Assembly (NCBI GenBank): GCA_910585015.1 | Contig: CAJUCT010000008.1 | Coordinates: 29,106 to 93,105 of the forward strand | Direction: 5' to 3' | DNA: 64,000 nt | From: an uncultured Acetatifactor sp. | Lineage (GTDB): Bacteria > Bacillota > Clostridia > Lachnospirales > Lachnospiraceae | Translations under genes and position numbers: made by a program | Shown: positions 1,782 through 61,898 of the stretch, piece by piece | How positions within the stretch are numbered: the first letter of the stretch is position 1 | How the letters are laid out: each line of letters begins with the position of its first letter | Notes under the pieces: generated by a model | What the model was told of the DNA's origin: nothing | What the model saw: only the letters and a program-made list of their open reading frames with translations | The model's database searches: none

Positions 1782-3845
1782 ATGGCAGGACATATGAAAA
1801 AATATATCAGGTTAAAGGGACGTATTAAGACATATTTGAATTTTACGATTTATCTGGGGATTCTGCTCTGTGCTGTCTCAGCGGCAGTGTTCCTGATTGA
1901 TTACCGGGCAGGCGGTATTGTGACCTGCTTTACTATATTTTACCTGGCGATCACCCTCACCCTGTATTTTTACAACAAGCCCCTGATTATGAATGAACTG
2001 ATCAGCTTTGCGACGGAATACGGGCAGATTCAGAAAAAACTCCTGCGGGAGTTGGAAATTCCTTATGCGTTGCTGGATGACGGAGGTAAGATAATCTGGA
2101 CCAATGCGGCTTTTGAGACGGTGGTACATCAGCCCAAGGGCTACAGCAAATCCCTTACAAGCCTGTTTCCCACCCTCACCCGGGACCGGCTGCCGGATGA
2201 CAGCGGTCTGGACGAGGCACAGTATGATCTTCGTTATGAAGGCAGCGAGTATGTGGTCCGGTTCAAAAGAATTTCTCTGAAGGAGATGGCCGAGCACAGC
2301 GATATGATCCAGGCGGAGGGGTACAATGGATATCTGATCGCCATGTACCTTTTTGATGAGACGGCGCTGCATATCGCCCTGCAGGAGGTGGACGACCAGT
2401 CTCTGGCGGTGGGCATGGTCTATCTGGACAATTATGACGAGGCCCTGGAGAGCGTGGAGGAGGTCAGGCGTTCCCTGTTGATCGCTCTGATTGATCGAAA
2501 GGTCAATAAATACATTTCAGGATTGGACGGCATATCCAAGAAGCTGGAGAAGGACAAATACTTGATTATCCTGCGGAAAAAGGCCATAGCCCAGCTGCAG
2601 GCGAACCGGTTTGAACTGCTGGAGGACGTCAAGACCGTCAATATTGGCAATGAGATGGCTGTAACCATCAGCATGGGCGTGGGCTTGGACGGACTGACAT
2701 ACGCGCAGAACTATGAATTTGCCCGCAATGCCATTGACCTGGCTTTGGGACGCGGCGGCGATCAGGCCGTGATCAAGACTCCGGAGAGTGTGACCTACTA
2801 TGGCGGCAAGAGTCAGCAGGTGGAGAAAAATACCCGCGTGAAGGCCCGTGTGAAAGCCCATGCTCTGCGGGAGATTATCACAGCCAAGGACACGGTGCTG
2901 GTGATGGGCCACAGAAATCCGGATGCCGACAGCTTTGGAGCCACGGTGGGCATCCACCGGATAGCCCAGACGCTGGAGAGAAAAGCCCATATTGTATTGA
3001 ATGATACTCCGGCCTCCATACAGCCGCTGCTGGAGTTGTTCCGAAATAATCCCGATTACGAGGAGGACATGATCATTGACAGCCAGCGCGCCATTGAGAT
3101 TGCCGGTGGCAATGCGGTGCTTGTGGTAGTGGATGTAAACAAGCCTTCTATTACGGAATGTCCTGATTTGCTGCGGTTCTGTAAATCCGTGGTGGTGCTG
3201 GATCATCACCGGGCGGGCAAGGAAACCATCGAGAACGCCACGCTCTCCTATGTGGAGCCCTATGCGTCTTCGGCATGCGAAATGGTATCAGAGATATTGC
3301 AGTACACTTATGACAATATCAAAATACGTCCCGAGGAGGCGGATTGTATGTATTCCGGCATCATTATTGACACCAACAATTTTGTCAGTAAGGCCGGTGT
3401 GCGAACCTTTGAGGCGGCTGCGTTCCTGCGCCGTAATGGCGCGGATGTGACCAGGGTGAGAAAGCTGTTTCGGGAGGATGCCAATGAGTACAAGGCCAAG
3501 GCGGATGCCGTCAGCCAGGCCGAGATATACCGGCAGAATTTTGCCATATCGGTGTGTACCAGCGACGATCTGCCAAGTCCTACGATTGTGGGTGCCCAGG
3601 CGGCCAACGAGCTTCTGAACATAAAGGGAATCAAGGCCAGCTTCGTGCTTACGGATTACCAGGGCAAGATTTATATCAGCGCCCGGTCCATTGACGAGGT
3701 CAATGTGCAGCTGATCATGGAGCGAATGGGAGGAGGCGGACATATGTCCATTGCCGCCTGCCAGATGGAGGGCGCTGGGATTATTGAAGCCATCGGCGTC
3801 TTGAAATCCACCATAGACAATATGCTGGAGACAGGGGAAATTTAA
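1782..3845 (+). CDS. gdpP: GdpP-like DHH/DHHA1 cyclic-di-AMP phosphodiesterase
   Basis: Two N-terminal TM helices. DHH motifs GHRNPDADSFG, VVVDVN and LDHHR, plus DHHA1 GGGGH. Classic yybT-rplI-dnaB synteny. Start moved to the ATG at 1782, preceded by GAAGAGG; the ORF-track start at 1626 has no RBS. Confidence 0.85.
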   Translation: MAGHMKKYIRLKGRIKTYLNFTIYLGILLCAVSAAVFLIDYRAGGIVTCFTIFYLAITLTLYFYNKPLIMNELISFATEYGQIQKKLLRELEIPYALLDDGGKIIWTNAAFETVVHQPKGYSKSLTSLFPTLTRDRLPDDSGLDEAQYDLRYEGSEYVVRFKRISLKEMAEHSDMIQAEGYNGYLIAMYLFDETALHIALQEVDDQSLAVGMVYLDNYDEALESVEEVRRSLLIALIDRKVNKYISGLDGISKKLEKDKYLIILRKKAIAQLQANRFELLEDVKTVNIGNEMAVTISMGVGLDGLTYAQNYEFARNAIDLALGRGGDQAVIKTPESVTYYGGKSQQVEKNTRVKARVKAHALREIITAKDTVLVMGHRNPDADSFGATVGIHRIAQTLERKAHIVLNDTPASIQPLLELFRNNPDYEEDMIIDSQRAIEIAGGNAVLVVVDVNKPSITECPDLLRFCKSVVVLDHHRAGKETIENATLSYVEPYASSACEMVSEILQYTYDNIKIRPEEADCMYSGIIIDTNNFVSKAGVRTFEAAAFLRRNGADVTRVRKLFREDANEYKAKADAVSQAEIYRQNFAISVCTSDDLPSPTIVGAQAANELLNIKGIKASFVLTDYQGKIYISARSIDEVNVQLIMERMGGGGHMSIAACQMEGAGIIEAIGVLKSTIDNMLETGEI

Positions 3846-3852
3846 GCAGGAA

Positions 3853-4090
3853 AACATGCGGAACATGCGGAACGCCAAGACAGCATGTTCCCGGACAGTA
3901 CACTGATGAACATCTGGACGCCAAAGCGGCCGGATGTGCATCACCTGATATGTGAACTGGTAGGGAACATGCGGAACGCCAAGACAGCATGTTCCCGGAC
4001 AGTACACTGATGAACATCTGGACGCCAAAGCGGCCGGATGTGCATCACCTGATATGTGAACTGGTAGGGAACATGCGGAACTCTAATAGG
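3853..4090 (+). repeat. Tandem duplication (104 bp unit, 2 full copies plus partial copies) of the hairpin/GCGGAAC element, family 1
   Basis: Unit 3861-3964 is repeated at 3965-4068 with no differences seen by eye. A third partial copy ends in CATGCGGAACTCTAATAGGAGG directly before the rplI ATG. Confidence 0.95.
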
Positions 4091-4099
4091 AGGAAGAAT

Positions 4100-4546
4100 A
4101 TGAAGATTATTTTATTACAGGATGAGAAAAAGCTGGGGAAGAAGGGCGACATTATCGAGGCCAGTGACGGATATGCGAGAAATTACATTCTGCCGAAAAA
4201 GATCGGCGTGGAGGCCACACCTAAGAACCTGAATGAACTAAAGCTGCAGAAAGCCAACAGTGAGAAACTCGCCCAGGAACAACTGGATGCCGCTAAGGCG
4301 CTGGCCGCAGACCTGGAGCCTCGTCAGGTGGTGGTTAGGATCAAGGCGGGTGAGGGCGGCAAGACCTTCGGTTCTGTGTCTTCCAAGGAGATCGCGGCGG
4401 CACTGAAGGAACAGCATGGCATTGAACTGGACAAGAAGAAGATACAGCTGGGAGAGAGCCTGAAGAGCTTTGGCAATTATGAGGTGGCTGTGAAGCTCCA
4501 TCCCCAGGTGACCGGAAAGTTTACCGTGAAAGTGACGGAGGCATAG
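4100..4546 (+). CDS. rplI: 50S ribosomal protein L9
   Basis: MKIILLQDEKKLGKKGDIIEASDGYARNYILPKK is the L9 N-terminal signature. AGGAGG RBS sits 6 nt upstream. Confidence 0.95.
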   Translation: MKIILLQDEKKLGKKGDIIEASDGYARNYILPKKIGVEATPKNLNELKLQKANSEKLAQEQLDAAKALAADLEPRQVVVRIKAGEGGKTFGSVSSKEIAAALKEQHGIELDKKKIQLGESLKSFGNYEVAVKLHPQVTGKFTVKVTEA

Positions 4547-6021: not shown

Positions 6022-6053
6022 TACGCGAAACAGGAAATTATATAAACAGCATA

Positions 6054-6152
6054 TCCCTGGAATATACACTGAACAAAAGCAAGACGCCCAAGCGGCATGA
6101 TTTTGTTCACCAGGATTGTGTACAGACAAGGAATATGCGGAACTTTAAATAA
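6054..6152 (+). repeat. Family 1 hairpin/GCGGAAC element, single copy
   Basis: ACTGAACAAAAGCAAGACGCCCAAGCGGCATGATTTTGTTCACC aligns by eye with the cores at 3903-3945 and 17523-17566. It ends in ATATGCGGAACTTTAAATAAGAAAGGGG before the merR-like ATG. Confidence 0.7.
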
Positions 6153-8023: not shown

Positions 8024-8102
8024 GCTTACCTCTTTCCTGCATAACGTGGATTATGCTCGTGTTATTACCTTAATCGGTATTTGGATGTGCAACATCCAAA
8101 AC
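8024..8102 (+). repeat. Family 2 palindromic element, single unit
   Basis: CTTACCTCT...CCTGCATAACG...TTAATCGGTATTTGGATGTGCAACATCCAAA matches the units at 61738-61898 and 25214-25380. Confidence 0.75.
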
Positions 8103-8264: not shown

Positions 8265-8507
8265 TTAGATAGCCTCATGGAAGGTACGGGAGATAACGTC
8301 AGCCTGCTGTTCCGGAGTCAGCTTGATGAAGTTCACTGCATAGCCGGACACGCGGATGGTCAGCTGAGGATAATTCTCGGGATGAGCCTGAGCATCCAAT
8401 AAGGTATCTCTGTTCAACACGTTTACATTCAGATGATGACCGCCCTTCGTAGCATAGCCATCCAATAAGTTTACCAGGTTATCAACCTGTGCTGCACTTG
8501 CTGCCAT
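8265..8507 (-). CDS. Stand-alone glycyl-radical domain, the detached C-terminal piece of PflB (GrcA/YfiD-like)
   Basis: 80 aa containing [55 protein letters not shown], the PFL C-terminal glycyl-radical signature RVSGYAV. It has its own AGGAGG RBS. Confidence 0.9.
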
Positions 8508-8634
8508 AATTTTTTCCTCCTATTCTGAGTTCCGTCTCTGCACTACGGCGTCCCCTGAGAGGGAGGCCGTAGTGCAGAGACTGTTATTGATATATTTTAT
8601 GCCGCCCGCCCGTAGGGGGCGGCATGTACTGCAC

Positions 8635-8835
8635 CTATTCGTAATCATCCAGTCCCTGATGCAAAGTAGGTACACTGCAGGCCAGCGGGGTGCGGGAACA
8701 ATCCGAACAACCCATGGTCTGAACGGTTTTGTTTTCCTCGGTATCGTCACGGTCCACATTGATGTGTCCCATGCCGTCTGCCATGCCCTGATCGAGCATT
8801 TTTACGAGGTCATCAATCATTTTATTCTCGTCCAT
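8635..8835 (-). CDS. 66 aa acidic Cys-containing protein encoded inside the pflB interruption
   Basis: GAAAGAGG RBS 5 nt upstream of the ATG. Residues 7-28 resemble the start of the glycyl-radical piece (DDLVKMLD..G.GHINV versus [15 protein letters not shown]). It also carries a CSDC...C motif. Coding status is unproven. Confidence 0.5.
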   Translation of the reverse strand: MDENKMIDDLVKMLDQGMADGMGHINVDRDDTEENKTVQTMGCSDCSRTPLACSVPTLHQGLDDYE

Positions 8836-8877
8836 ATTTACCTCTTTCTACATCATAGTCTCGATGTGGTCTACAGA

Positions 8878-10917
8878 TTACTTGCTCAGATCCAACTCAA
8901 TGTCTCCGCTGAACACCTGATCTTCCTTGCCCAGAGCGCCGGGGATGATGGTGAAGGTATTGGAGATACCGTCCTGCGCATCATTGAAGGGCAGCTTGGA
9001 TACGGAAGACAGAGATGCCACTGCGCCGTGGGTGTCACGTCCATGCATCGGGTTAGCGCCGGGAGCGAAAGGCTGGCCCTTTCTACGTCCGTCAGGCGTG
9101 TTACCGGTTGCCTTGCCGTAGGTTACATTGGAAGTAATGGTCAGGATGGAAGTGGTAGGGAATCCATCTCTGTAGGTGTGATGCCTTCTGATAGCGGTCA
9201 TAAACTTATGAACCACATCCTGGGCAATGCTGTCAACACGGTCGTCATCGTTACCATACTTCGGGAACTCGCCGGTGGTCTTGAAGTCAACGATGATACC
9301 ATCTTCATCGCGGACAACTTCAACCTTGGCATACTTGATAGCGGACAGAGAGTCTGCCACGATGGACAGGCCGGCAACACCGGTTGCGAAGTATCTTCTC
9401 ACATCTCTGTCATGCAGAGCCATCTCAGCTCTCTCGTAACAGTACTTGTCATGCATATAGTGGATAATATTCAGGGTATTTACATACACATCAGCCTGCC
9501 ACTCCAGCATGTCGATGAACTTGCTGTACACATCGTCAAAGTCCAGAACATCGCCGACCACAGGACGGTACTTAGGACCAACCTGCTTCTTGGTAACTTC
9601 GTCCACGCCGCCGTTCAAAGCGTACAGCAGGCACTTAGCCACGTTGGCGCGAGCGCCGAAGAACTGCATCTCCTTACCGATTCTCATGGAAGATACGCAG
9701 CAGGCAATACCATAGTCATCGCCATGGGTCACTCTCATCAGGTCATCGTTCTCATACTGGATGGAAGATGTGTTGATGGAGGTCTTAGCACAGAAGCGCT
9801 TGAAGCCCTCAGGCAGTCTGGTGGACCACAGTACGGTCAGGTTGGGCTCAGGTGAAGCGCCCAGATTGTACAGGGTCTGCAGATATCTGAAGCTCATTCT
9901 GGTAACCATATGACGACCGTCTACGCCCACACCAGCCAGGGACTCGGTTACCCATACAGGATCACCGGCGAAGATCTGGTTGTACTCAGGAGTACGGGCA
10001 AACTTGATCAGACGCAGCTTCATGATGAAGTGGTCGATGAACTCCTGGATCTGCTCCTCGGTGAACACACCGTTCTTCAGATCTCTCTCTGCATAGCAGT
10101 CGATAAAGGTGGAGGTACGTCCCAGGGACATAGCGGCGCCGTTCTGCTCCTTAACGGCACACAGATAGCCGAAGTAGGTCCACTGAATAGCCTCTTTTAC
10201 GTTGGCAGCGGGCTTAGAGATATCGCAGCCGTAGGAAGCAGCCATCTCCTTCATCAGCTTCAGGGCAACGATCTGCTCGGAAATCTCTTCGCGCAGACGG
10301 ATCACATCGTCGGTCATCACACGGCCGGTGGAAGCCTTCTGCTCCTCCTTATCCTGAATCAGTCTGTCGATACCGTACAGGGCAACCCTTCTGTAGTCGC
10401 CGATGATACGGCCACGGCCATAGGCATCAGGCAGACCGGTGATAATATGGGAAGAACGGCAGGCTCTCATCTCTGCATTATAAGCATCAAAACAACCTGC
10501 ATTGTGGGTCTTTCTGTGAGTGGAGAAAAACTCGCTGATCTCGGGATCGACCTCGTAGCCGTTGTCGGCGCAAGCCTTCTCTGCCATACGGATACCGCCA
10601 TAGGGCTGCAGGGATCTCTTGAAAGGCTTGTCGGTCTGGAAACCAACGATGGTCTCCTTGCTCTTGTCAAGGTAACCAGGACCATGGGAGGTGATGGTGG
10701 AAACAACCTTGGTGTCCATGTCCAGAACGCCGCCTGCTTCTCTCTCCTGCTTCTGCAGATCCAGTACCATTGCCCACAAATCCTTTGTGTTTTGTGTAGG
10801 GCCAACTAAGAAAGAATCATCTCCATCATAGGGATGATAGTTCTTCTGGATGAAATCACGAACATTGATTTCATTTTCCCACTTGCCGCCTACAAATTCG
10901 TTCCATTCAGGTCTCAT
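8878..10917 (-). CDS. pflB: Formate C-acetyltransferase (pyruvate formate-lyase) lacking the glycyl-radical domain
   Basis: 679 aa with the catalytic Cys pair ACCVSSM and [23 protein letters not shown]. Homology stops at ALGKEDQV, followed by 11 unrelated residues and TAA. RVSGYAV is absent from this ORF. Confidence 0.92.
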
Positions 10918-11014: not shown

Positions 11015-11261
11015 GGCTGGTAGTGTACTTTTTCCTGTACATAATTGCTATTTTGGCCATTATTTTTATTAAAAATTTATAAAAACTGTCCATAAAAGGT
11101 TATGCTTGCCAGAAGCGGGGAAAAGTATTATACTGTAAAGGCGGAAAAGGAAACTAAAAACGGCATTTTCCCAACGAAGGCGGAAGCAGGACAGGCACTG
11201 CCTGCGGGTACGAGGATGTTCGGGGGAAGATGCAAAGCACTAAATCAGGAGGTGTTGAAAT

Positions 11262-17501: not shown

Positions 17502-17502
17502 A

Positions 17503-17622
17503 CAGCAGATTCCCGGACGGCTCACTGATGAATATTCGAACGCCGAAGCGTCAAGATGTTCATCACCGGATGAGTGTGCCAGGAGGGAAGCTGCGGAATT
17601 TCGAACGGAACTTTTAAATAAG
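17503..17622 (+). repeat. Family 1 hairpin/GCGGAAC element, single copy
   Basis: ACTGATGAATATTCGAACGCCGAAGCGTCAAGATGTTCATCACC core with an outer stem GCAGATTCCC / GGGAAGCTGC, then GGAATTTCGAACGGAACTTTTAAATAAGAGG before the upp ATG. Confidence 0.8.
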
Positions 17623-22519: not shown

Positions 22520-22588
22520 GCCTCCGGGACAAGTCAATCCACGCCGCAAACGGCGTACTACGGAACGAGTATATAAAGGAGGCAGAGA

Positions 22589-25213: not shown

Positions 25214-25380
25214 TCAATGCAATATCCATAGTAAGGTAAATTTGGATCTGACGTTCCAATTACTGATTAACGCAGTATTGCAGGCTCCGCCTGCGATATG
25301 CATGTAGAAGTAAGTTCGGATGTTGCACATCCAAAAACGTATTAGGGCAATATCACAGGTATAGCCTGTGATATGCAGGA
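25214..25380 (-). repeat. Family 2 palindromic element, two units, in the atpA-atpG spacer
   Basis: The reverse complement reads CCTGCATATCACAGG...TTTTTGGATGTGCAACATCCGAACTTACTTCT...CCTGCAATACTGCGTTAATCAGTAATTGGAACGTCAGATCCAAA, colinear with 61738-61898. Confidence 0.8.
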
Positions 25381-25391
25381 AAGAGGTATAT

Positions 25392-26249: not shown

Positions 26250-26265
26250 CTTTGTTCCCCTAGAA

Positions 26266-27788
<1,523 letters not shown>

Positions 27789-28215: not shown

Positions 28216-28285
28216 GCCCATAATCCCGGCGAAGCCCATAATCCCGGCGAAGCCCATAATCCCGGCGAAGCCCATAATCCCGGCG
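28216..28285. repeat. 18 bp tandem repeat, about 4 copies (GCCCATAATCCCGGCGAA)
   Basis: Read directly from the sequence, immediately after the atpC stop. Confidence 0.95.
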
Positions 28286-28782: not shown

Positions 28783-28833
28783 AGAGAATTTACAATAAGC
28801 AGAGCCACGGGAACCATGTGTTTTCGTGGCTCT

Positions 28834-29047
28834 GCGGAACTCTAAACGGTATGTGCCCGGGCGGGGCGGATGCGGAACTCTAACGGTATGTGCCCGGGCG
28901 GGGCGGATGCGGAACTCTAAACGGCATGTGCCCGGGCGGGGCGGATGCGGAACTCTAAACGGCATGTGCCCGGGCGGGGCGGATGCGGAACTCTAAACGG
29001 CATGTGCCCGGGCAGGGCGGATGCGGAACTTTAGTCGGAGGAAAAGG
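28834..29047 (+). repeat. 38 bp tandem array, 5 copies plus a partial sixth (GCGGAACTCTAAACGGCATGTGCCCGGGCGGGGCGGAT)
   Basis: Contiguous units at 28834, 28872 (37 bp), 28909, 28947 and 28985. The final partial unit GCGGAACTTTAGTCGGAGGAAAAGG runs into the methyltransferase ATG. A hairpin at 28801-28833 precedes the array. Confidence 0.95.
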
Positions 29048-32808: not shown

Positions 32809-32918
32809 TACACCCTAAGAACTTTAAACTGCCTGCAAAGAAAAAGGCAAGAGATATTTTTAAAAGCATGTTCTCGGACAGCGCGGCACATGCGGAATGC
32901 AAAATAGGAGAGATGAAA

Positions 32919-36219: not shown

Positions 36220-36390
36220 GAAAATCCTCCTTATTTATACTGACGGTCACTAAAACTTGCCAAGTAACCCGACTCACGAGCAAAAGATTTCAGAGACATC
36301 GCGGCATATTTCATCGCTGGTGAGTATAGAGTTTCGTATATGCCCTGCCAGTCTTCAATCCGGGCGATCAATTTCCGGGAATATACTGAT

Positions 36391-37383
36391 TTAAAGTTTT
36401 GTTGCTGCTTGACGCTCTTTGCCCGATAATCTTCTTTTGTACATGCGAATATCCGGGCCGGTCAGCTTACACAGAGAATAATTGCTGGTGATGCGGGAAA
36501 AAATGCGGTCCGAGTAACGGTCACGTATCTCTTCCAGATTCAGGTTAGTGGAGATAATAGTAGCTTTCTGCCGCAGGTGCCGTTCGTTGAGTAACGAGAA
36601 CAGCTGGGAAGTCACAAAGCTGTTGGTCACTTCCGTCCCCAGATCGTCAATAATCACCAGGTCACTATTGTAAATGTCTTTGCAGAAATTGTAAAGGGTT
36701 TCTTTTGCTTTTGTGTCGAAGTTATAGCGGGCCAGAGTATCAAACAGGCCGCTGGCGCTGAAATAGATCACGGCCATGCCCAGAGAGAGCAGTTCCCTGG
36801 CAATACAGCCGGATAAAAAACTCTTGCCTGTACCTACTGTACCATAAAACAGTAAATTATGATAGCTTTTTTTGAAATCCTCCACGAATTTATGACTGAT
36901 GGACACTGCGTTTTCAAAACGCTGCAGGTCCTCGCCCTTGTAGTAGGAGGTGGAAAGGGTGTCAAAATTCTCCCGGGCAATCATTTCTTGAATGCCGGAT
37001 TGTTCATAGAGCAGGGTGATCTCCTGCTGGCGGAAGCAGTGGCATTTCTCACTGCCGATATAGCCGGTGTCCTGACAGTCGGGGCAGTCATAGAAAGGCT
37101 CCAGATAGTCTGGGGGATACCCGGCCTGGGACAGCAGCTTCCGACGGCGGGCGGCTTTTCGGGCCAGTTCCTGCCTTAGTTCGTCCAGCGCCGCCTGATC
37201 CCCGTCCAGCAGCAGACGCGCGTGAGCCACGCAGGTTCCGCCCACGGAGGTGTCCAGTTCCCGGTACTCCGGCAGCTTTGCATAAACCTGCGCTCTGCGC
37301 TGCATCAACAGACGCATATTGTGATTTTGCTTTTCCTCATAACTGCGTTTTATGGTGTCGTACTGTGCTTTAGTCAATGCCAC
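36391..37383 (-). CDS. DnaC/DnaI-like helicase loader ATPase (GTG start)
   Basis: Zn-ribbon CPDCQDTGY..CHC, Walker A GTVGTGKS and Walker B LVIIDDLG. Confidence 0.8.
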   Translation of the reverse strand: MALTKAQYDTIKRSYEEKQNHNMRLLMQRRAQVYAKLPEYRELDTSVGGTCVAHARLLLDGDQAALDELRQELARKAARRRKLLSQAGYPPDYLEPFYDCPDCQDTGYIGSEKCHCFRQQEITLLYEQSGIQEMIARENFDTLSTSYYKGEDLQRFENAVSISHKFVEDFKKSYHNLLFYGTVGTGKSFLSGCIARELLSLGMAVIYFSASGLFDTLARYNFDTKAKETLYNFCKDIYNSDLVIIDDLGTEVTNSFVTSQLFSLLNERHLRQKATIISTNLNLEEIRDRYSDRIFSRITSNYSLCKLTGPDIRMYKRRLSGKERQAATKL

Positions 37384-37430: not shown

Positions 37431-38606
37431 CTAGTTGCTGAGGAGTTCTTTTTCCAATTCCTCAAAATTGTAGGTGTTCTGCTTAAACTGATTGAACTTG
37501 TTGCCGGTGCTGCTGTTGCGGGCAGTGGTGCTTGAAGCGGTATTCTTTTGCTTCTGATGTTGTTCGTCCACTCTCTTGATGTCGGCTTTATGGCGGACAT
37601 TCTCCTTGCGCCAGCTGTTTAAGATCCCTTCCGCATATTCAAAGCGGTGCTTATCCACAGCCAGCACCGTGCGCTCACATGCCTCGAAAATGATATCCGG
37701 GCTGAAGCCGTACTCTCCGGTCCAGCGGTTGATATATTCCAGTTCCTTACTGGTGGGAGCGGAGGTCTTGCCCAGCTCATTCATGATGGCATAGACAGAC
37801 TTATCGTATTTGAGGGCGGTCTTTTGTGCCTGCTTGGGGTTAGTGATCCCCTGCTGGGCCCAGCTGATGGCCACCTTTTCCATATAGCGGAAATCTTTTT
37901 TGCCCCGATCTACACAGTACTGGATGAGATAGTCGATGAGGTCGTCGGAAAAATGCAGTACATCCGACAGATACAGGATTGTTCTCATATCCGATGATGT
38001 CAGAGGTCTGCCCACGTACACCTGGGCCACGAACAGCAGCTGGGCAGTGTTCTCCTGCTCCTTAAAGTTGCGCAGCTGGTCGGCGCTGTAGGTGGGCTTG
38101 GCGTAGGGATCGGGCTCCTGTTCCTGTTCCGGCTCCGGTTCTTTATGCATGGCTGTCGGGCTATTAACGGCAGGACCTGCGTCGGATACAGTGGTCACGT
38201 CCGTGGCGGAAGGCCGGATATCCGGTATAGTCATCGGTTCCTGGGGCCGCAGCGCCACGGCGTCGGCACTATCACCGCGGGAGGAGACGGAAGGGGTACC
38301 GGTTTTCACAGGATTCAATTCACACAGATGGATGCCCACCAGATTTTTGTCCTCATCGTAGTCCAAGGACAAAAGTTTTTGCTTTTCCCAGTAGCGAAGA
38401 GCGCGCAGTACGTCCTTCTCCGTATGGTTAAACTTATCCGCAATATCCGAGACGCTGAAAGCCATGTTGGCATGGATCATGCGCAGCAGATATAAATAGA
38501 CCTTCAGCTGGGCATCATTGGCATCTTTCATATAGTTGTCAATAAAATAGTCGGATACGGCGGTGGACTCTATGTAATTATCCTTATAAATCGTTAAACG
38601 TGCCAT
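37431..38606 (-). CDS. DnaD-domain replication initiation/primosome protein
   Basis: 391 aa with a winged-helix N-terminus and a DnaB_2/DnaD-type repeat region (YINRWTGEYGFSPDII, YAEGILNSW). Paired with the downstream loader. Confidence 0.75.
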   Translation of the reverse strand: MARLTIYKDNYIESTAVSDYFIDNYMKDANDAQLKVYLYLLRMIHANMAFSVSDIADKFNHTEKDVLRALRYWEKQKLLSLDYDEDKNLVGIHLCELNPVKTGTPSVSSRGDSADAVALRPQEPMTIPDIRPSATDVTTVSDAGPAVNSPTAMHKEPEPEQEQEPDPYAKPTYSADQLRNFKEQENTAQLLFVAQVYVGRPLTSSDMRTILYLSDVLHFSDDLIDYLIQYCVDRGKKDFRYMEKVAISWAQQGITNPKQAQKTALKYDKSVYAIMNELGKTSAPTSKELEYINRWTGEYGFSPDIIFEACERTVLAVDKHRFEYAEGILNSWRKENVRHKADIKRVDEQHQKQKNTASSTTARNSSTGNKFNQFKQNTYNFEELEKELLSN

Positions 38607-38790
38607 GTATAACCATCCTTATTTAAAGTTCCGCAGCTTCCCTGTCACTGCACAGATCCGGTGATGAACATCCAGCCGCTGACGGCGTCTGAATATTCAT
38701 CAGTGCAGTAACAGGGAAGCAGCTGTTTAAAGTTCCGCAGCTTCCCTGTCACTGCACAGATCCGGTGATGAACATCCAGCCGCTGACAGA
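38607..38790 (-). repeat. Family 1 hairpin/GCGGAAC element, tandem (104 bp period, about 1.7 copies)
   Basis: AAAGTTCCGCAGCTTCCCTGTCACTGCACAGATCCGGTGATGAACATCCAGCCGCTGAC occurs at 38625 and 38729. In the gene orientation it ends in GCTGCGGAACTTTAAATAAGGATGG before the dnaD-like ATG. Confidence 0.92.
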
Positions 38791-39061
38791 ACTGTTTCGT
38801 GTCAGTGGTTCAAAGTATATCATAAGAAAACTGAAAAAGAAATAGGCATTTTGCCGGAAAGAAAAACACCTTACAGGAAGGCGGAAAAATGTGGAAACGG
38901 TGGATAGAGTGGATAATTTTTATAGCGTTGAGGGAATTTTCCTGATAGATTCGGCAAGCCGCTTCTTCCGAACGGGAGGACGGCTTATCCACAGTTTTTA
39001 GAAAAATATCCACATTTTTTTGCCGCGGGAGCAGCAGAAAAAATGTGGATATGGTGGATAA

Positions 39062-50700: not shown

Positions 50701-51347
50701 AGATCCGGGGAGCGGGAAATCTGCTGGGTATGCGTCAGCACGGGCATATGGAGGCGGTGGGCTATGACCTGTACTGCAAGATGCTGAACGAAGCGGTGCA
50801 ACGGCGGAAAGGGATCGCCACGGCAGCGGATTTTGCCACGGTGGTGGATCTGGATGTGGACGCTTTTATACCGCCGGAATATATTGTCAACGAGGTGCAG
50901 AAGCTGGATATCTACAAGCGAATAGCGGGCATCGAGAATATCCGGGAGCGGGACGACATGCGTGACGAGCTGCTGGACCGCTTCGGGGAGGTTCCCACCT
51001 CCGTGGAGAATCTGCTGCGGATATCCCTGATCCGGGTGGCGGCCCACAGACTTTACATGACGGAACTGAAGGGAAAAAATGAGCGGATCATCTTTACTTT
51101 CCGGCCTGATGCCCCCATTGCGCCGGAGCGGATTCCCGGCTTTTTGAAGCCTTACGGAGACAGGCTGCGCTTCACGGCCTACGGCAATCCCTTTTTTACC
51201 TATAAATATAAGAAATGCAATGTCATTGAGAAGGATGCCCAGAACCTGCTCTCGGACACGGAACAGCTGCTTGTGGCCATGGAAGTGCTGTTGGATGAAA
51301 ATCATGTGGGCGATAAGCTTGGAACTGACGTTCCAAATACTGATTAA
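47745..51347 (+). CDS. mfd: Transcription-repair coupling factor
   Basis: About 1200 aa with [30 protein letters not shown] and a TRCF C-terminal domain. Follows pth as in most Firmicutes. Confidence 0.95.
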
Positions 51348-51375
51348 TGCAGTATCGCAGGTAAGAGGAAACCAT
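51315..51375 (-). repeat. Family 2 element variant overlapping the 3' end of mfd
   Basis: GGAACTGACGTTCCAAATACTGATTAATGCAGTATCGCAGG parallels 25247-25286 (GGATCTGACGTTCCAATTACTGATTAACGCAGTATTGCAGG). Confidence 0.75.
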
Positions 51376-55806: not shown

Positions 55807-56184
55807 AAAGGGCGGGACTGGAAAACGGAAACAAATGTTATTTACAGTGTAAAACAAAAGATAGGGTAAGGAAATAAGCAAAACTATAAATAAGAGAGAG
55901 CAACATTCAGTTTTAAGGGATACCTAAAATGAGTGTTGCTTTTTTTTCTAATAACATATATAATCTAGAATTACAATATGTAGAAAAGAAATTAATCTTA
56001 ATTATACTATTTAACTCTATAAATATAAACGGTTCTGAAAGAGGTTAATTTCGTATTTGGCAATAATCAAGTGATATTACATGGGATGTAAATGGCAGGC
56101 GAAAGCCGATTGGAATGTGACCGACGTGTAAGATATACTGTCTGACTGCAGGGATCAGCGGAGTGATTTTATCGGGTTGGGCTT

Positions 56185-57798
56185 ATGGAAAGGATAATAC
56201 GGATGATGACAGAGTTTGAGCATGATGCCACGCCTACATGGAGTGGATTTATATATCAGGGCCATGTGGCAATGTATTTAGCGGTACGGAAGATCTGTGA
56301 ATTGTTGGAGTCACCGCATCCTATGGAAGTACAGGAAATTGCCGCATCGTTTAGGCTGGAAGTGGAAAATTGGGAAGATGTGGCTATTTTCAGCGAGGAT
56401 AAACAGGGAAAACATTATAAATCAATACATCAGGTCAAAAACAGGCGGGAAAATAATATTGGAGCCTACAAGGATCCGATTGTGCAATTACTGTTAGAAA
56501 AGAGTAAGATGGGGGAATTGGCGTTGGGAACGCCAGAAGCATATTTACATACAAGCGCCATAATCAATGAAAGTGAAACAGTAATCAAACAGTCTCTGCA
56601 AGACTGGAATCATCGAGTCCTGGATTTTTATAATAGTCTGGCGGATCTCAAAGATCAAGAGATAGAGGAAAGTGAGAAGAATGAATTCCAACAAAGGGTG
56701 AGTGCTGCGATAGAGGAGGAACCTATAGGACTTAACAGGAAAAAATATTCGAGTTTACTAAAAAATATAAAGAGTTGCATTGAAAGCGACCAAGGGATAT
56801 ATGAATTAAAACAAAATATAGAAAAATTGTGGTTATATCTGAAAAACGAGTTGGCAGTCGGAAGTATGGGTGCAGACGCAAAGATTTATACTTATGATGA
56901 CGGGGCTGCTGGTGGCAACGCGGAGCAGATTTTTGATAAGATAGTTGGACAGGTAAAACGATACAAAGAGATCACGAATAGTCCCGATCGATTGACAGAG
57001 GAACAATACGTGTACATAGCAGATAAGCTGCTGGAATATATGAGAAATTTTATTTCCAATAGGCATAACTTAATGCACAAAAAGGAGGAGTATCCTAAAG
57101 AGTTTTTATTTTCAGAAGTGATAAGTATTTTGGATAATTGTGTACAATTTATTGAAAAAAAAGCTAATGTAATGGCTCTCAGAAGAAGATATGATGAGGT
57201 GATGTCTCAATATTGCAGAGTGATTTGTAAAAATAAGTGTGAAGAGGAGAACGGTTGTGAATGCAGACTGCTGTACCCGGAATATGGAATAACGGATTTG
57301 GATGAAGAAAGCTTTATAAGGATGTGCTTTGGCTATAATCCGGACTGCGATACGGGGATAGAGGATCGCATGTGTATAGGAAAACTGCTTAACAGCGATG
57401 GGCTACAGAATTCCGTTTTTAAAGTATTAAAAGAGTGTTCGCAAGAATTCTTCAGGCAGGAAAAGGACAAAACAAGAGTCGTGATTAATGATAAAAATAA
57501 AAATGCGTTTCTGACGGCAATTTCAAAGGGAAATGCCGATGCGGTAATAGAAGATATTGTAAAAGGAATCAATAAAAATTCTTCCATGGTGAGCCCTGTC
57601 TTTGAGGCGGATGAATTGATTACAGACCGACTGCATTCAACCGACGAAGAAATGTGGGATAGCAACTTTTGTTATATAACGGAAAGATATTTGAGCGCAA
57701 AAGCGAAGGAGAATAGCGACAATATCCAGAAAAGTATTTGCGCTCCCAAGAAACCTACATTTGTCACTGCGGGGGAAGTGATGGCGAGGCTGCAATAA
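56185..57798 (+). CDS. Lamassu LmuA-like / ABC-3C effector candidate: N-terminal PD-(D/E)xK (Cap4/DUF4297-like) nuclease fold plus a long uncharacterised C-terminal region
   Basis: WSGFIYQGHVAMYLAV, then EVENWEDVAIFS and SIHQVK (E/D...QxK arrangement). AT-rich codon usage. First gene of a tight three-gene operon. An alternative start at 56203 has a better RBS. Confidence 0.55.
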   Translation: MERIIRMMTEFEHDATPTWSGFIYQGHVAMYLAVRKICELLESPHPMEVQEIAASFRLEVENWEDVAIFSEDKQGKHYKSIHQVKNRRENNIGAYKDPIVQLLLEKSKMGELALGTPEAYLHTSAIINESETVIKQSLQDWNHRVLDFYNSLADLKDQEIEESEKNEFQQRVSAAIEEEPIGLNRKKYSSLLKNIKSCIESDQGIYELKQNIEKLWLYLKNELAVGSMGADAKIYTYDDGAAGGNAEQIFDKIVGQVKRYKEITNSPDRLTEEQYVYIADKLLEYMRNFISNRHNLMHKKEEYPKEFLFSEVISILDNCVQFIEKKANVMALRRRYDEVMSQYCRVICKNKCEEENGCECRLLYPEYGITDLDEESFIRMCFGYNPDCDTGIEDRMCIGKLLNSDGLQNSVFKVLKECSQEFFRQEKDKTRVVINDKNKNAFLTAISKGNADAVIEDIVKGINKNSSMVSPVFEADELITDRLHSTDEEMWDSNFCYITERYLSAKAKENSDNIQKSICAPKKPTFVTAGEVMARLQ

Positions 57799-57833
57799 GT
57801 CTGGCAATTTTCTAAAGAAGAGGAGAGAAAGGT

Positions 57834-58586
57834 ATGCGTGAGTTTATCAGATCAATTGCAGGGGATAGCTGTTGGGATTTTTCTTATAAAGAGTACAATT
57901 TCCTTTTTGCTGAGCAAAAGTATCAATCTTATTATCTGTTCTATTTTCCCTCTGATAGAGATCAATTATTGAAACTGAAGAAGGAGGCCGGAGATATTTT
58001 TCGGGCTATAAAAGAAAGTAAAAGATATCATTCAGATATGGATAAAAACATAACCTGTATTCTGTGTCTGGAGGTAGATAATCATGCGTATTATGAAGCA
58101 AGCGCATCCGGAAAAGTCAGTGATTTGGGTAAGATCATTTGCCTTGTAGAGGAAGATTTGAACTATTTTAAGAAGAATGTGCTTTTATACACAAAAGAGA
58201 TGGACGAGTTCTCACAAGAGCATATAGGGTGTTTGAAATCTCTTTGTCAGGAATATTTTACAGAAGAGAATTTCCAGTCCTATAAAAAATCGTATGGTGA
58301 TAATATTGAATATGACTTTTTAATTAATCTGTTTATTAAAATTCCATTTCTTAGTTTTGAGGGATATCAGCCTGGAAACCGCAAAGAATATCAATCTATG
58401 GAGGCATTTATTAAGGCCAGACTGACAGAAAAAGAACTCAATCTGAAGCTTATAGAAGAAATATGTATTCATCTTGAGGAGAATTTACAGGATGATGATG
58501 CTTTATTTGAGTATCTTGATGCAATGGTGAAAGAGCAGATAAATGAAGCAGGTATGACAAAGGAGGAACAGATTCATGAGGATTAA
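57834..58586 (+). CDS. Small acidic helical protein, LmuC-like / ABC-3C middle-component candidate
   Basis: 250 aa with GAGGAGAGAAAGG RBS. Its stop overlaps the start of the ATPase gene by 11 nt. No catalytic motif seen. The call rests on position and size. Confidence 0.45.
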   Translation: MREFIRSIAGDSCWDFSYKEYNFLFAEQKYQSYYLFYFPSDRDQLLKLKKEAGDIFRAIKESKRYHSDMDKNITCILCLEVDNHAYYEASASGKVSDLGKIICLVEEDLNYFKKNVLLYTKEMDEFSQEHIGCLKSLCQEYFTEENFQSYKKSYGDNIEYDFLINLFIKIPFLSFEGYQPGNRKEYQSMEAFIKARLTEKELNLKLIEEICIHLEENLQDDDALFEYLDAMVKEQINEAGMTKEEQIHED

Positions 58587-61011
58587 AAGTCTTGAAATAA
58601 AGAATTTTAAACTATTTGATGATAAATTCGATAAAATGCGGAATATTTCGCAGGCAGATCTGATTTTGCTAAACGGTCCTAACGGATATGGTAAAACGAC
58701 AATCTTTGATGCGCTGGAACTGGCTTTGACGGGTGAAATAAAAAGAATCAATACTTATAACGAAGAGTTAGGAGTGTCCAAAAGTGAGAAGTCCAAAAGA
58801 AAAATACTGATTGCTAATCCCTCCGAGGAGGCATATGTAAATGTAGTATTGGAAGAGGATGGAAATGAACTGAAGATGGTGCGGTTTTATGAAAAACCAT
58901 TGGGGGATCAGGGAACAGAGGCTTCTCAGGACAATAATCCACACAAGATCTTTAAAAAATTCCAGTTAAGGCTTATTTTTAATGGTGAAGAGATAAAACA
59001 GGAGGAAGAAAGAATCCGCGTTTTAAAGCAGTATAATTTATACGGTATAGGAGATTTTTTTGATAAATGCTGTTTCCTTTCACAAGATGAGCATTTACAG
59101 TTTCTGAAAGAGACGAAAAAGGACAAGTCGATAGCTTTAGATTTTTTGTTTCAATTGCCTGAGAAACAGCAAAAAGAATTGAACAGGGTAAATGCTATTC
59201 TCAATTCAATACAAAATTCCAATACAAAAAACAATTTGGGATTTATGAAAAAATTCGAAAAACTTGAGAATGGCCTAAGAGAAGAGATTGAAAAGCTAGA
59301 AAGCATCTTGCAAAATAATTTAGTCGGACAGAACATGGAAGAGCGGGCGGGGGCTGAATATATGCGTCTGTTTCCGGATAAAGAAATTAATTGGGACGGA
59401 GAAAATCCGTTACTTAAAGATGAGGAATTTGACGCGGCTCTTAAGGTATTAGAAAGACTGGAGTACTATGCGCAGAATCAGGAAAGCTGCAAAAAATATA
59501 TTTGGAATAACCCCTACAGGGAATTATTGAAGCCTTTTAAGGGGACAGAAGATATTTTATATGAGGAAAATGCGCTTGAGTATGCGTTACGCTTTTTTCC
59601 GTTATCACAAAATGGAGAAATACTTGAAAATAGGTATCACAGGCAACAACAGTTGGAGTTACTTAAGCAAAACTTGGACAAGCGGGAAATCTATAAGCTG
59701 AATTGGACGGTGGTGGCCAGTGAAAAACTTTTAAAGGAAGAAATGATTGAACTTGCCCAAAGTGATATAAAACAGGTGAGAGCTTTGGAACAAGTTCAGG
59801 GAACAATTGATCAAGTACTTTCAGAGATCAGCAATACTAGGACTGTCTTATTACGTCAGACAAAGGCGGCTATGGAGCAAAAGGCGATTCCAGACGGGGA
59901 ATGCCCGTTTTGTGGTACCTCATATGGTGAGTGGGAGATACTGGAACAACATATTTCAGCAGAAAAAGATAAATTGTTGTCCTTAAGCGAAGGAACAATT
60001 ATAGATATACAGAATCGAAAAGATGATATATATGAAAAATATTTAGACGAAATAGCTGTATCAATACAAGTTCTTTTGCAAAATAGAGTATCAGAGGCGG
60101 TTTATAAAAAATGCTTGGAGGTAAAGAAGTATAAAGCGGGACTGGACGAAATAAATGGGCTGCTCAAAAAAATAAATGTTGAGCTTCCTTTGGAATACCA
60201 GGAGGATATGACTCAAACAGCCCTGGCTTATGAGCATTTGGTTCAATCAATAAAAAATGGATTAATGACAATTCCAGATGCGGTTCAGGAACAGTTGGAT
60301 TTAAGTGAATTCTGGAAAGATTTTACGTATTATTACGATAAAAGTGAGGATAAGTTCAGTGAAAAAGTAGCTTTTATGATATGGGCAAAGAAAGACTATA
60401 TTATGCGATTTTCATTGGATTCCCGTAGAAAACTGCTTTTGGTCAAAAAGAGCGAATTATCGAAAATAGTAGACAGGCGTACAAAATTAAATGAAATATA
60501 CAATATGCTGTCAGAGTATAAAAATGCCATAGAGGCAGGAGTGACAGATTATAAACAAAAAGTAATCCGGGATATTGAGCCGTTACTGCATGTGTACACT
60601 GCGAAGATCCTGCAACAAAAATTTTGTGGAAAAAGTATTTTTATTTTGACGGATAAAAATATGCAGAATTTCCAGCTGACACATTCACAGGAAGACAATC
60701 AGGATATTTTATACAATATGAGTTCAGGGCAGCTTGCTGCAGTTTCACTTTCTTTTTTGCTCTGTATGCATCAAGTATATGCAAAGCAGCAATCATTGTC
60801 TGTTTTACTGATAGATGACCCTGTTCAGACAATTGATGATGTGAATATGGTGGGGTTAGTGGATATTTTGCGTTTTGAATTTCAAGATACACAGATTTTT
60901 ATATCAACACATGAGCAAAAGTTTGAGTGGTATCTGAAATACAAATATGAAAAAGCCCAGAAGAAAATAGAATCGTACAATATGAAGAATATTGTATTAC
61001 AGGTGGATTGA
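58576..61011 (+). CDS. SMC/Rad50/SbcC-like ABC ATPase with coiled-coil insert and CxxC hook (LmuB-like)
   Basis: Walker A LNGPNGYGKTT, Q-loop FLSQDE, signature MSSGQ, Walker B VLLIDDP and H-loop STHE. About 550 aa of heptad-rich sequence lie between the head halves, with CPFCG at residues 443-446. Confidence 0.85.
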   Translation: MRIKSLEIKNFKLFDDKFDKMRNISQADLILLNGPNGYGKTTIFDALELALTGEIKRINTYNEELGVSKSEKSKRKILIANPSEEAYVNVVLEEDGNELKMVRFYEKPLGDQGTEASQDNNPHKIFKKFQLRLIFNGEEIKQEEERIRVLKQYNLYGIGDFFDKCCFLSQDEHLQFLKETKKDKSIALDFLFQLPEKQQKELNRVNAILNSIQNSNTKNNLGFMKKFEKLENGLREEIEKLESILQNNLVGQNMEERAGAEYMRLFPDKEINWDGENPLLKDEEFDAALKVLERLEYYAQNQESCKKYIWNNPYRELLKPFKGTEDILYEENALEYALRFFPLSQNGEILENRYHRQQQLELLKQNLDKREIYKLNWTVVASEKLLKEEMIELAQSDIKQVRALEQVQGTIDQVLSEISNTRTVLLRQTKAAMEQKAIPDGECPFCGTSYGEWEILEQHISAEKDKLLSLSEGTIIDIQNRKDDIYEKYLDEIAVSIQVLLQNRVSEAVYKKCLEVKKYKAGLDEINGLLKKINVELPLEYQEDMTQTALAYEHLVQSIKNGLMTIPDAVQEQLDLSEFWKDFTYYYDKSEDKFSEKVAFMIWAKKDYIMRFSLDSRRKLLLVKKSELSKIVDRRTKLNEIYNMLSEYKNAIEAGVTDYKQKVIRDIEPLLHVYTAKILQQKFCGKSIFILTDKNMQNFQLTHSQEDNQDILYNMSSGQLAAVSLSFLLCMHQVYAKQQSLSVLLIDDPVQTIDDVNMVGLVDILRFEFQDTQIFISTHEQKFEWYLKYKYEKAQKKIESYNMKNIVLQVD

Positions 61012-61737: not shown

Positions 61738-61898
61738 CCTACCTCTTCCCTGCATATCGCAGGCCCAGCCTGCGATACTGCGTTAATACGTATTTGGATG
61801 TGCAGCATCCAAACTTACCTCTTCGTGGATATTGCTGGCCGCGCCTGCAATATCCCTTAATGCGTATTTGGATGTGCAGCATCCAAACTTACCTCTGG
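61738..61898 (+). repeat. Family 2 palindromic element, two tandem units (74 bp period)
   Basis: TTTGGATGTGCAGCATCCAAACTTACCTCT at 61793 and 61867, each preceded by CCTGC(G/A)ATA..TTAAT(A/G)CGTA. Confidence 0.9.

Follow-up and report, generated by a model that had tools for sequence, protein, structure and literature searches.

A family of ~104-nt hairpin repeats abutting SD sequences in Acetatifactor-clade Lachnospiraceae: candidate structured mRNA elements

The 64,000-nt stretch of DNA analysed here (the window), from an uncultured Acetatifactor species, carries 10 loci of one repeat family, whose units are hairpins of about 104 nt standing in sense orientation, nearly always directly upstream of the SD of a gene, and which is apparently undescribed so far in Acetatifactor-clade Lachnospiraceae. 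Our preferred reading of the sequence evidence, to which we give a probability of roughly 0.55, is that these are lineage-specific interspersed repeats, able to amplify in tandem, that have been retained as cis-acting structured mRNA elements affecting stability, processing or the context of translation. Taken together, a strict sense orientation, a constant distance from the SD, pairing that is strand-specific and kept at neutral divergence, and an invariant single-stranded motif point to a cis element of the mRNA under purifying selection and not to decaying selfish DNA.

Allowing at most one mismatch, the window contains 12 matches to GCGGAACTYTAA where shuffles predict 0.39, an enrichment of about 30-fold, and a count of 12 was reached in 0 of 100 shuffles. 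About one gene in six within the window carries a hairpin element (Table 1). The seven loci and the weaker eighth listed in the first-pass annotation are all present, at coordinates that are exact or a few bases off, and a covariance-model scan of the kind it had called for recovers every one of them in the window; its list had overlooked two further copies, 11146-11257 (+) and the decayed 36312-36403 (-). The 104-bp period that it had reported at two independent loci was found by both Tandem Repeats Finder and a repeat finder, at 3860-4081 (+), where Tandem Repeats Finder gives period 104, 2.1 copies and 100% identity, and at 38622-38787 (-), where the spacing is 104. The same programs describe 28833-29030 as a 38-bp array of 5.2 copies. 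A look-alike below threshold lies before atpF, at about 22540-22566.

Table 1. Copies of the repeat family in the 64-kb window (CM, covariance model).
Feature	Position	Strand	Details
5' unit remnant (AACATGCGGAACATGCGGAACGCCAAG)	3853-3879	+	Begins 8 nt past the gdpP-like stop codon (3843-3845)
Full 104-nt unit 1 before rplI	3880-3983	+	Ends in CGGAACGCCAAG; TRF period 104, 100% identity
Full unit 2 before rplI	3984-4086	+	Ends in GCGGAACTCTAA; CM 126 bits; MFE -51.4, z -7.1; followed by TAGGAGG 4087-4093, ATG 4100
Single unit, dnaB-helicase terminator to MerR-family gene (ATG 6167)	6046-6148	+	CM 109 bits
Short variant: ACAG, 21-bp hairpin, CGGAACTCAGAA	8523-8584	-	CM 36.5 bits, E 3e-7; z -7.2; abuts SD of 80-aa C-terminal glycyl-radical fragment (ATG 8507)
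Diverged unit (ACGGC...GGGGGAAGATGCAAAGCACTAAATCAGGAGG)	11146-11257	+	SD-adjacent; CM 23.4 bits, E 9e-4
Unit before upp (ATG 17634), linker duplicated	17502-17617	+	CM 91.6 bits
Unit between atpG and atpD (ATG 26397), interior divergent	26265-26377	+	CM 43 bits
Short hairpin variant ending TGCGGAACTCTAA, head of 38-nt array	28797-28845	+	z -5.8
About 5 tandem 38-nt mini-units (ACGGCATGTGCCCGG then GCGGGGCGGATGCGGAACTCTAA)	28846-29034	+	CM 46-52 bits; SD 29038-29042, methyltransferase ATG 29051
Apparent internal-deletion derivative (AGCATGTTCTCGGACAGCGC then GGCACATGCGGAATGCAAAA) before thioesterase gene	32864-32905	+	CM 22.9 bits, E 1e-3; fold not significant
Decayed unit, internal deletion	36312-36403	-	CM 34.9 bits; sole window copy not abutting an SD, ~85 nt upstream of SD
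Full 104-nt unit before DnaB_2/DnaD-like gene (ATG 38606)	38623-38726	-	CM 113.5 bits; MFE -59.5, z -8.0; directly 5' of native SD AAGGATGG
Upstream partial unit: ACAG and 3' half kept, 5' arm lost	38727-38795	-	Whole insert missing from the orthologous IMSAGC_003 (L123) site

To read the grammar of the unit, 67 non-redundant units, some from the window and some from other genomes, were aligned. The left flank is A-rich, usually (GGAA)CTYWAAA, and precedes ACAGC, which forms the 5' boundary; the body is an imperfect hairpin, about 85 nt long and made of three helices, often with GACGCnAAGCGGC at its apex; and the 3' end consists of TGCGGAAC and an A/U-rich tail, which is TYTAA or, in some lineages, TAAAAT. 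The SD of the gene begins 0-4 nt after this tail. Units are mostly 103-105 nt long, with a range of 97-106 nt. The left flank is a copy of the 3' linker, even ahead of single units, so that arrays read linker-(hairpin-linker)n-SD, and they often start with the remnant of an earlier unit. The outer and inner stems proposed in the first-pass annotation fold as quoted, the best copies reaching MFE z-scores of -7 to -8 and the merR, upp and atpD copies scoring less strongly; what that description had overlooked was the conserved ACAGC boundary and the left flank that repeats the 3' linker. Its common 3' ending does not apply to the upstream rplI unit, which has CGGAACGCCAAG in place of TYTAA. In the upp copy, 12 nt of the linker are duplicated (CGGAATTTCGAA followed by CGGAACTTTTAA).

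Four of the shorter features (8523-8584, 28797-28845, the 38-nt array and 32864-32905) look like mini forms of the unit or products of internal deletion, each with both boundaries kept. Of 170 copies whose 3' end is intact, about 50 lack the 5' part, and the 3' end is absent in 0 of 15 units ascertained by their 5' end. Truncation from the 5' side, as in LINEs, does not describe the short copies as a whole, since several of those inspected by eye keep the 5' boundary and at least some are therefore internal deletions. Furthermore, GCGGAAC / ATGCGGAAC is intact in all 15 units that a metagenome scan ascertained by the 5' end only, and in this set every terminal unit is followed by an SD and an ATG.

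The position of the elements relative to genes was analyzed with an HMM built from the alignment, which yielded 178 copies without overlap, grouped into 125 arrays (82 singles, 35 doubles, 6 triples and 2 quadruples). Among the 108 arrays away from locus edges, 91 have, within 40 nt downstream, an SD and the beginning of an ORF of 80 codons or more, compared with 9.4% at random positions, and 0 of 108 have one on the opposite strand; the strict co-orientation with the downstream gene that had been claimed for the window is thus borne out in the larger sample. From GGAACTYTAA to the start codon the distance is mostly 13-19 nt. The upstream gene is co-directional for 96 of 107 arrays, against a background of 72%, and the median gap from its stop codon to the array is 24.5 nt, which indicates that the elements fill intercistronic spacers; they lie mostly inside operons and sometimes in a 5' UTR. 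In addition, GC skew is positive or near zero along the whole window with no switch of sign, so that the window is one replichore, and the three minus-strand copies each precede minus-strand genes; orientation therefore follows transcription and not replication. The CTYTAA linker is found before 1.8% of element-free genes compared with 83% of genes with an element, which discards the linker as a general feature of 5' leaders or as a pre-existing target. A promoter inside the element was likewise rejected, as no sigma-70-like site was found within the elements. A -10-like TATACT stands immediately before the elements at the dnaD-like site, and the corresponding locus of isolate IMSAGC_003 conserves it; if it is a promoter, the hairpin at this site would be close to the start of the transcript, the place at which a 5' stabiliser would act.

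The genes downstream (rplI, upp, atpD, dnaD-like, merR-like and methyltransferase) are functionally unrelated. An invariant single-stranded motif at a fixed distance from the SD, before unrelated genes and at about one in six genes of the window, is what could be expected of the operator of a post-transcriptional regulon, in which GCGGAAC beside the hairpin would be bound by one global RNA-binding regulator or by a trans-acting sRNA, and the translation of many genes repressed or activated together. This explanation seems doubtful to us. No complementary sequence was found in the window outside the elements, all 12 matches on both strands being element copies save the one-mismatch match at 38062-38073; moreover, the downstream genes have no evident common function, tandem copy number varies freely, contrary to what a tuned operator would lead one to expect, and no regulator was pinpointed. 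Pairing of the linker CUYU with the SD, as an anti-SD, was also considered and rejected, with no covariation between the two (Y base against SD type, Fisher p = 0.48).

To assess the compensatory changes noted in the first-pass annotation, covariation was computed on a MAFFT alignment, which is not fitted to any structure. Both sides change in 24 of 27 pairs, and 88.8% of cells are able to pair compared with 66.3% after shuffling and 35-45% when the partners are slid. Compensatory change is statistically strong, with 373 double-change cells against 112 expected, a number reached in 0 of 500 shuffles. G·U pairs (168) exceed A·C mismatches (39) in a model-fitted alignment, which itself leans somewhat to G·U, and the sense strand folds more stably than the antisense strand by 6.4 kcal/mol, in 71 of 77 units, a comparison that is independent of any alignment. 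Strand asymmetry alone is no proof of RNA, as G·T wobble also stabilises same-strand single-stranded DNA; a further caveat to an mRNA role is that the copies were partly ascertained by their 3' motif. The asymmetry does bear on a purely DNA-level explanation, in which the units would act only as DNA, either as structures such as cruciforms or as binding sites for proteins (nucleoid, gyrase or recombination sites). Cruciform extrusion is open to long palindromes. In E. coli, REP/BIME bind gyrase and IHF (PMC3184786). However, double-stranded DNA predicts neither an excess of G·T over A·C nor a difference between sense and antisense folds, and the strict sense-strand adjacency to the SD (91/108 vs 0/108) has no explanation at the DNA level, which makes this reading very improbable. 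Function at the RNA level, as put forward from the window alone, is supported in so far as the evidence points to constraint on the transcribed strand, given the G·U excess, the sense fold, the gene-tracking orientation and the retained pairing.

Three loci syntenic with the window (L058, L117 and L123, with proteins 90-96% identical) allowed the comparison of copies at the same site in sister species. Such copies are 55-65% identical, and fourfold-degenerate sites of the helicase gene beside the elements are 57-62% identical between the same species. Between same-site copies, 49 pair changes are compensatory and 13 one-sided, and 27 pairs are unpaired in one copy. Divergence is therefore close to neutral with pairing and boundary motifs held, which indicates that structure and motifs are conserved while the sequence drifts. 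Compensatory differences at the same site could also stem from replacement by another copy and not from evolution in place; as divergence of the elements equals that of the fourfold-degenerate sites, replacement is not required.

The same comparisons showed units to be gained and lost fast in tandem. The window has 1.7 units in the 5' UTR of the dnaD-like gene and IMSAGC_003 (L123) has none, and the spacer next to this site is empty in the window and filled with two units in IMSAGC_003. Between gdpP and rplI there are two units and a remnant in the window, a single unit plus remnant in L058, and in L117 nothing but a linker-like remnant; in the same three genomes the dnaB-merR spacer has 1, 3 and 1 units. 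At both comparisons of empty and filled sites the SD is native (AAGGATGG and ATAGGAG), and its presence at empty orthologous sites rules out that the element carries it; the insert ends 0-3 nt before it. Solo linkers (L083, L117) and decayed copies were also found. The gain or loss of sites between close species and the decayed units within arrays show that individual copies are dispensable. Units inside one array are 96-100% identical, compared with a median identity of 74% and a maximum of 88% between different loci of one genome and a median of 69% across genomes; recent tandem duplication is thus common and recent dispersal was not seen. Copy number may shift by slippage or by unequal recombination between the repeated linkers.

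These dynamics are those that a selfish, non-autonomous mobile element (MITE, REP or PATE-like) would show, if the hairpin and its ends were the substrate of a transposase or recombinase, possibly as single-stranded DNA, and if its insertion were specific to sites just 5' of the SD and its effects on the mRNA only incidental. Filled and empty orthologous sites between species with 90-96% identical proteins, near-identical arrays of up to four units, the placement of both comparable insertions 0-3 nt from the SD, a family confined to one clade and a unit bounded by a repeated linker, so that solo linkers stay behind after loss, all fit this explanation. Against it, no dispersed copies exceed 88% identity, which gives no sign of recent transposition, and old copies hold their pairing and GCGGAAC at neutral divergence, which dead copies would not. 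MITEs are recognized by conserved TIRs to which the transposase binds, a TSD of variable sequence, near-identical dispersed copies and a parent IS with matching ends. Here the outer stem, the would-be TIR, is complementary within each copy yet differs among copies (GCATGTTCCC, GCATCTGCCC, GCAAATGCC and others) and lies inside asymmetric, non-complementary ends, ACAGC and GCGGAAC; the flanks repeat the constant (GGAA)CTYWAAA and not a site-specific sequence, and the two comparisons of empty and filled sites revealed no target-site duplication; and no parent IS was seen in the ~800 kb sampled. The MITE alternative raised in the first-pass annotation therefore captured the gain and loss of sites and the tandem amplification, whereas the TIRs, the TSD at the two empty sites and the near-identical dispersed copies that it entails were not found. 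As for PATE derived from IS200/IS605, these insert into the lagging-strand template and carry subterminal hairpins at both ends, whereas here a single hairpin spans the unit, and both orientations occur in one replichore and track genes, unlike single-stranded DNA insertion of the IS200/IS605 type. A tblastn search with IS200 TnpA revealed no IS200-like Y1 transposase in the ~800 kb sampled (best E 0.79), which is weak evidence. Taken together, we regard a purely selfish mobile element as unlikely, at perhaps one chance in four or five.

The family is confined to one clade. A scan of species-representative genomes with the 3' arm and linker gave at least 101 loci; among the 101 matches listed, 93 come from at least 32 assemblies of Lachnospiraceae, Acetatifactor or 'Clostridia bacterium', and the other 8, from unrelated phyla, look like chance. 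The element-bearing assemblies among the matches listed are mostly from mouse gut and include Acetatifactor muris DSM 23669 and the isolates IMSAGC_003 and 1xD8-48. No copy was found in ~70 kb of four related Lachnospiraceae contigs, whose AtpD is 92-94% identical to that of the window; the atpG-atpD spacer is 11-86 nt in these four element-free relatives compared with 147 nt in the window. Scanning viral contigs with two patterns gave only chance or coding-sequence matches; the three viral-contig loci that were read include two homologous stretches, L006 and L010. At the gathering threshold Rfam matched nothing in the window, and a search of four element-rich loci at E <=1 gave no match on the elements; a match to mir-3179 (L091:1424-1524) lies off the elements and is spurious. 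The literature searched contained no paper with the family's 12-mer and none on repeats of Acetatifactor or Lachnospiraceae.

Among known systems, the family is a structured interspersed intergenic repeat marked by obligate sense-strand adjacency to the SD and by a unit bounded by a repeated linker. It resembles REP/BIME, MIRU, BOX and Neisseria REP2 in habit (PMC3184786, PMC3049150) and lacks the testable defining features of each. REP/BIME are abundant extragenic palindromes, often intercistronic and co-transcribed, which stabilise upstream mRNA or attenuate transcription (PMC3184786, PMC3049150). The likeness lies in intercistronic palindromes whose presence and copy number vary among relatives and in a short conserved motif at the foot of the hairpin, here ACAG at the 5' foot, the sole trait shared in a membership test. 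REP/BIME are, however, 20-40 nt long with a conserved 5' tetranucleotide, usually in inverted pairs, near the 3' ends of genes and associated with RAYT, whereas our elements, at about 104 nt, occupy the sense strand and abut the downstream SD; membership was rejected on unit length (97-106 nt) and because every array detected is a direct, same-strand tandem. No gene for a RAYT, the Y1 HUH transposase that such repeats flank, emerged from the weak tblastn search of the ~800 kb sampled. MIRUs are tandem units of 40-100 bp in the spacers of polycistronic operons, co-transcribed and with filled and empty sites between species (PMC3184786), and are similar to the 125 arrays of 1-4 units described here, with their mostly co-directional upstream genes (96/107). 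In contrast to MIRUs, which have small ORFs overlapping the flanking stop and start codons and tetranucleotide direct repeats at filled sites, our elements show no evident conserved ORF, their sequences are unrelated, and the hairpin and invariant linker are specific to the family. A MIRU-like coupling ORF was rejected on unit lengths, which at mostly 103-105 nt are mostly not multiples of 3; additionally, the ATG within ACAGCATG is not conserved, as ACAGCATA and ACAGCAGA also occur.

Neisseria REP2 and Borrelia IR also lie on the sense strand immediately 5' of ORFs and have predicted internal RNA stem-loops (PMC3184786), as do the repeats found here. REP2 nevertheless brings its own promoter, RBS and ATG, whereas our elements show no sigma-70-like promoter, are mostly intra-operonic and precede an SD that, at the two comparable sites, is the gene's own. 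ERIC is cleaved by RNase E and Correia by RNase III, which alters mRNA stability (PMC3049150). Like these and BOX, the family consists of structured repeats that are interspersed and would lengthen operon transcripts at the 5' or 3' side and, like BOX with its boxB, it has a tandemly variable module. BOX, Correia and ERIC differ in that they occur in both orientations and at variable distances from genes, mostly have TIRs and candidate parent IS, and are not tied to the SD.

A stable hairpin or an SD near the 5' end protects an mRNA from 5' decay, and among Gram-positive and phage mRNAs 5' stabiliser hairpins or A/U-rich enhancers are found in the ermC and aprE leaders, in the STAB-SD of cryIIIA and in the 'epsilon' of T7 gene 10 (UUAACUUUA), which the linker just upstream of the SD (AACUUUAA/AACUCUAA) may resemble. 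The analogy is one of function only. Such leaders are single-copy, in contrast to the dispersed and tandemly amplifying family described here. The 38-nt array was also compared with other tandem repeats. CRISPR repeats are separated by unique spacers, and type III toxin-antitoxin loci have repeats of 36-45 nt, a terminator and the gene of a ToxN-like endoribonuclease; the array runs head-to-tail without spacers, which excludes CRISPR, and its downstream gene encodes a 408-aa Methyltransf_32 protein, which excludes ToxI. Lastly, integron attC sites are imperfect hairpins bounded by RYYYAAC and GTTRRRY, each placed after a cassette ORF; here neither GCGGAAC nor ACAGC matches its core site (RYYYAAC and the partner site, respectively), and the flanks are housekeeping genes in conserved synteny.

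If the elements do act in the mRNA, as we favour, several effects could be combined in one module. By looping out the extra 100 nt, the hairpin would keep the upstream stop codon and the downstream SD spatially near. It may also block exonucleases, protecting the upstream cistron at its 3' end and, once the mRNA has been cleaved or where a transcript starts, the downstream cistron at its 5' end; in addition, it could prevent the SD region from pairing with upstream RNA. GCGGAAC with its U/A-rich continuation, at a set distance from the SD, may be a sequence-specific site, for an endoribonuclease or an RNA-binding protein, or a translational enhancer. A bolder and rather improbable version is a clade-wide 'operon punctuation', in which a dedicated, putative endoribonuclease or RNA-binding protein would read the hairpin and GCGGAAC and cut or cap polycistronic mRNAs immediately before the SD of roughly every sixth gene, so setting the stability and translation of each cistron, with tandem copy number as an evolvable tuning knob. 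Its logic would be akin to that of PPR-defined intercistronic processing in chloroplasts and of Cas6 processing of CRISPR repeats.

For genome annotation, the arrays are a warning to gene callers, since ORFs are extended through them (for example the window ORFs 3989-4546 and 26295-27788). They could also serve as VNTR-like markers for strain typing. If the element works in mRNA, a sizeable share of the genes of a common mouse-gut clade of Lachnospiraceae would have in common one modular leader, made of a hairpin, an invariant 8-nt motif and the SD. To our knowledge, little is known of the effects of intercistronic structure in Clostridia, and the family would offer an unusually clean natural system for its relation to mRNA stability and translation in this group, as well as a portable insulator or RBS-context part for the engineering of gut Firmicutes. 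The type strain A. muris DSM 23669 bears the family, which makes the question directly testable there.

The pyruvate formate-lyase gene is split (8265-10917, minus strand), and a short variant of the main family of approximately 104-nt hairpin units lies in the interruption. The first part, an ORF of 679 aa, covers positions 1-50 of the 106-position Pfam glycyl-radical domain and thus breaks off midway in it. The insert that follows is about 370 nt long and contains a 66-aa ORF (8836 to 8636) and a GC-rich hairpin as well as the short element. The Shine-Dalgarno sequence immediately 3' of this element belongs to an 80-aa ORF beyond the insert, which encodes the remainder of the domain (positions 51-106).

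Mechanical ORFs pass through main-family elements into rplI (3989-4546) and atpD (26295-27788), so N-termini may be over-extended by gene callers at these elements. Long AtpD homologues of 555-575 aa were also found (P0001, P0002 and P0008); at least one of them, P0001, from a related Lachnospiraceae contig without the main family, has its N-terminus at the normal start, and its extra length therefore lies further along the protein and has another cause.

The window also holds a second repeat family, unrelated to the main one yet alike in habit (see table). Its unit consists of two hairpins, TTTGGATGnTGCACATCCAAA followed by TACGnATTAA and GCAGTATCGCAGG...CCTGCGATATGC, and ends in AGGAAAGAGGTA a short way upstream of a start codon. 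It is repeated in tandem with a period of 74 nt, fills the atpA-atpG spacer and had no Rfam match at the gathering threshold. Separately, the interval from atpC to the following ORF contains a perfect tandem repeat of an 18-nt unit, GCCCATAATCCCGGCGAA (3.9 copies, 28216-28285).

Copies of the second repeat family
Location	Position	Strand
Window	8030-8100	-
Window	25237-25390	+
Window	51314-51365	+
Window	61740-61896	-
L083 (locus from another genome)	~840-930	

Upstream of the DnaB_2/DnaD-like gene, five DnaA-box-like 9-mers (TTATCCACA, at most one mismatch) cluster within about 155 nt (38908-39061). Because GC skew keeps its sign there, the cluster is probably regulatory rather than an oriC. 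Skew is strong in a low-GC block at 56001-60000 (37.5% versus about 50% elsewhere), which may be an acquired island.

Lastly, the type strain Acetatifactor muris DSM 23669 bears an array in which long units alternate with short ones (L105, ~4200-4490, minus strand), and a cultured organism is therefore at hand for experiments.
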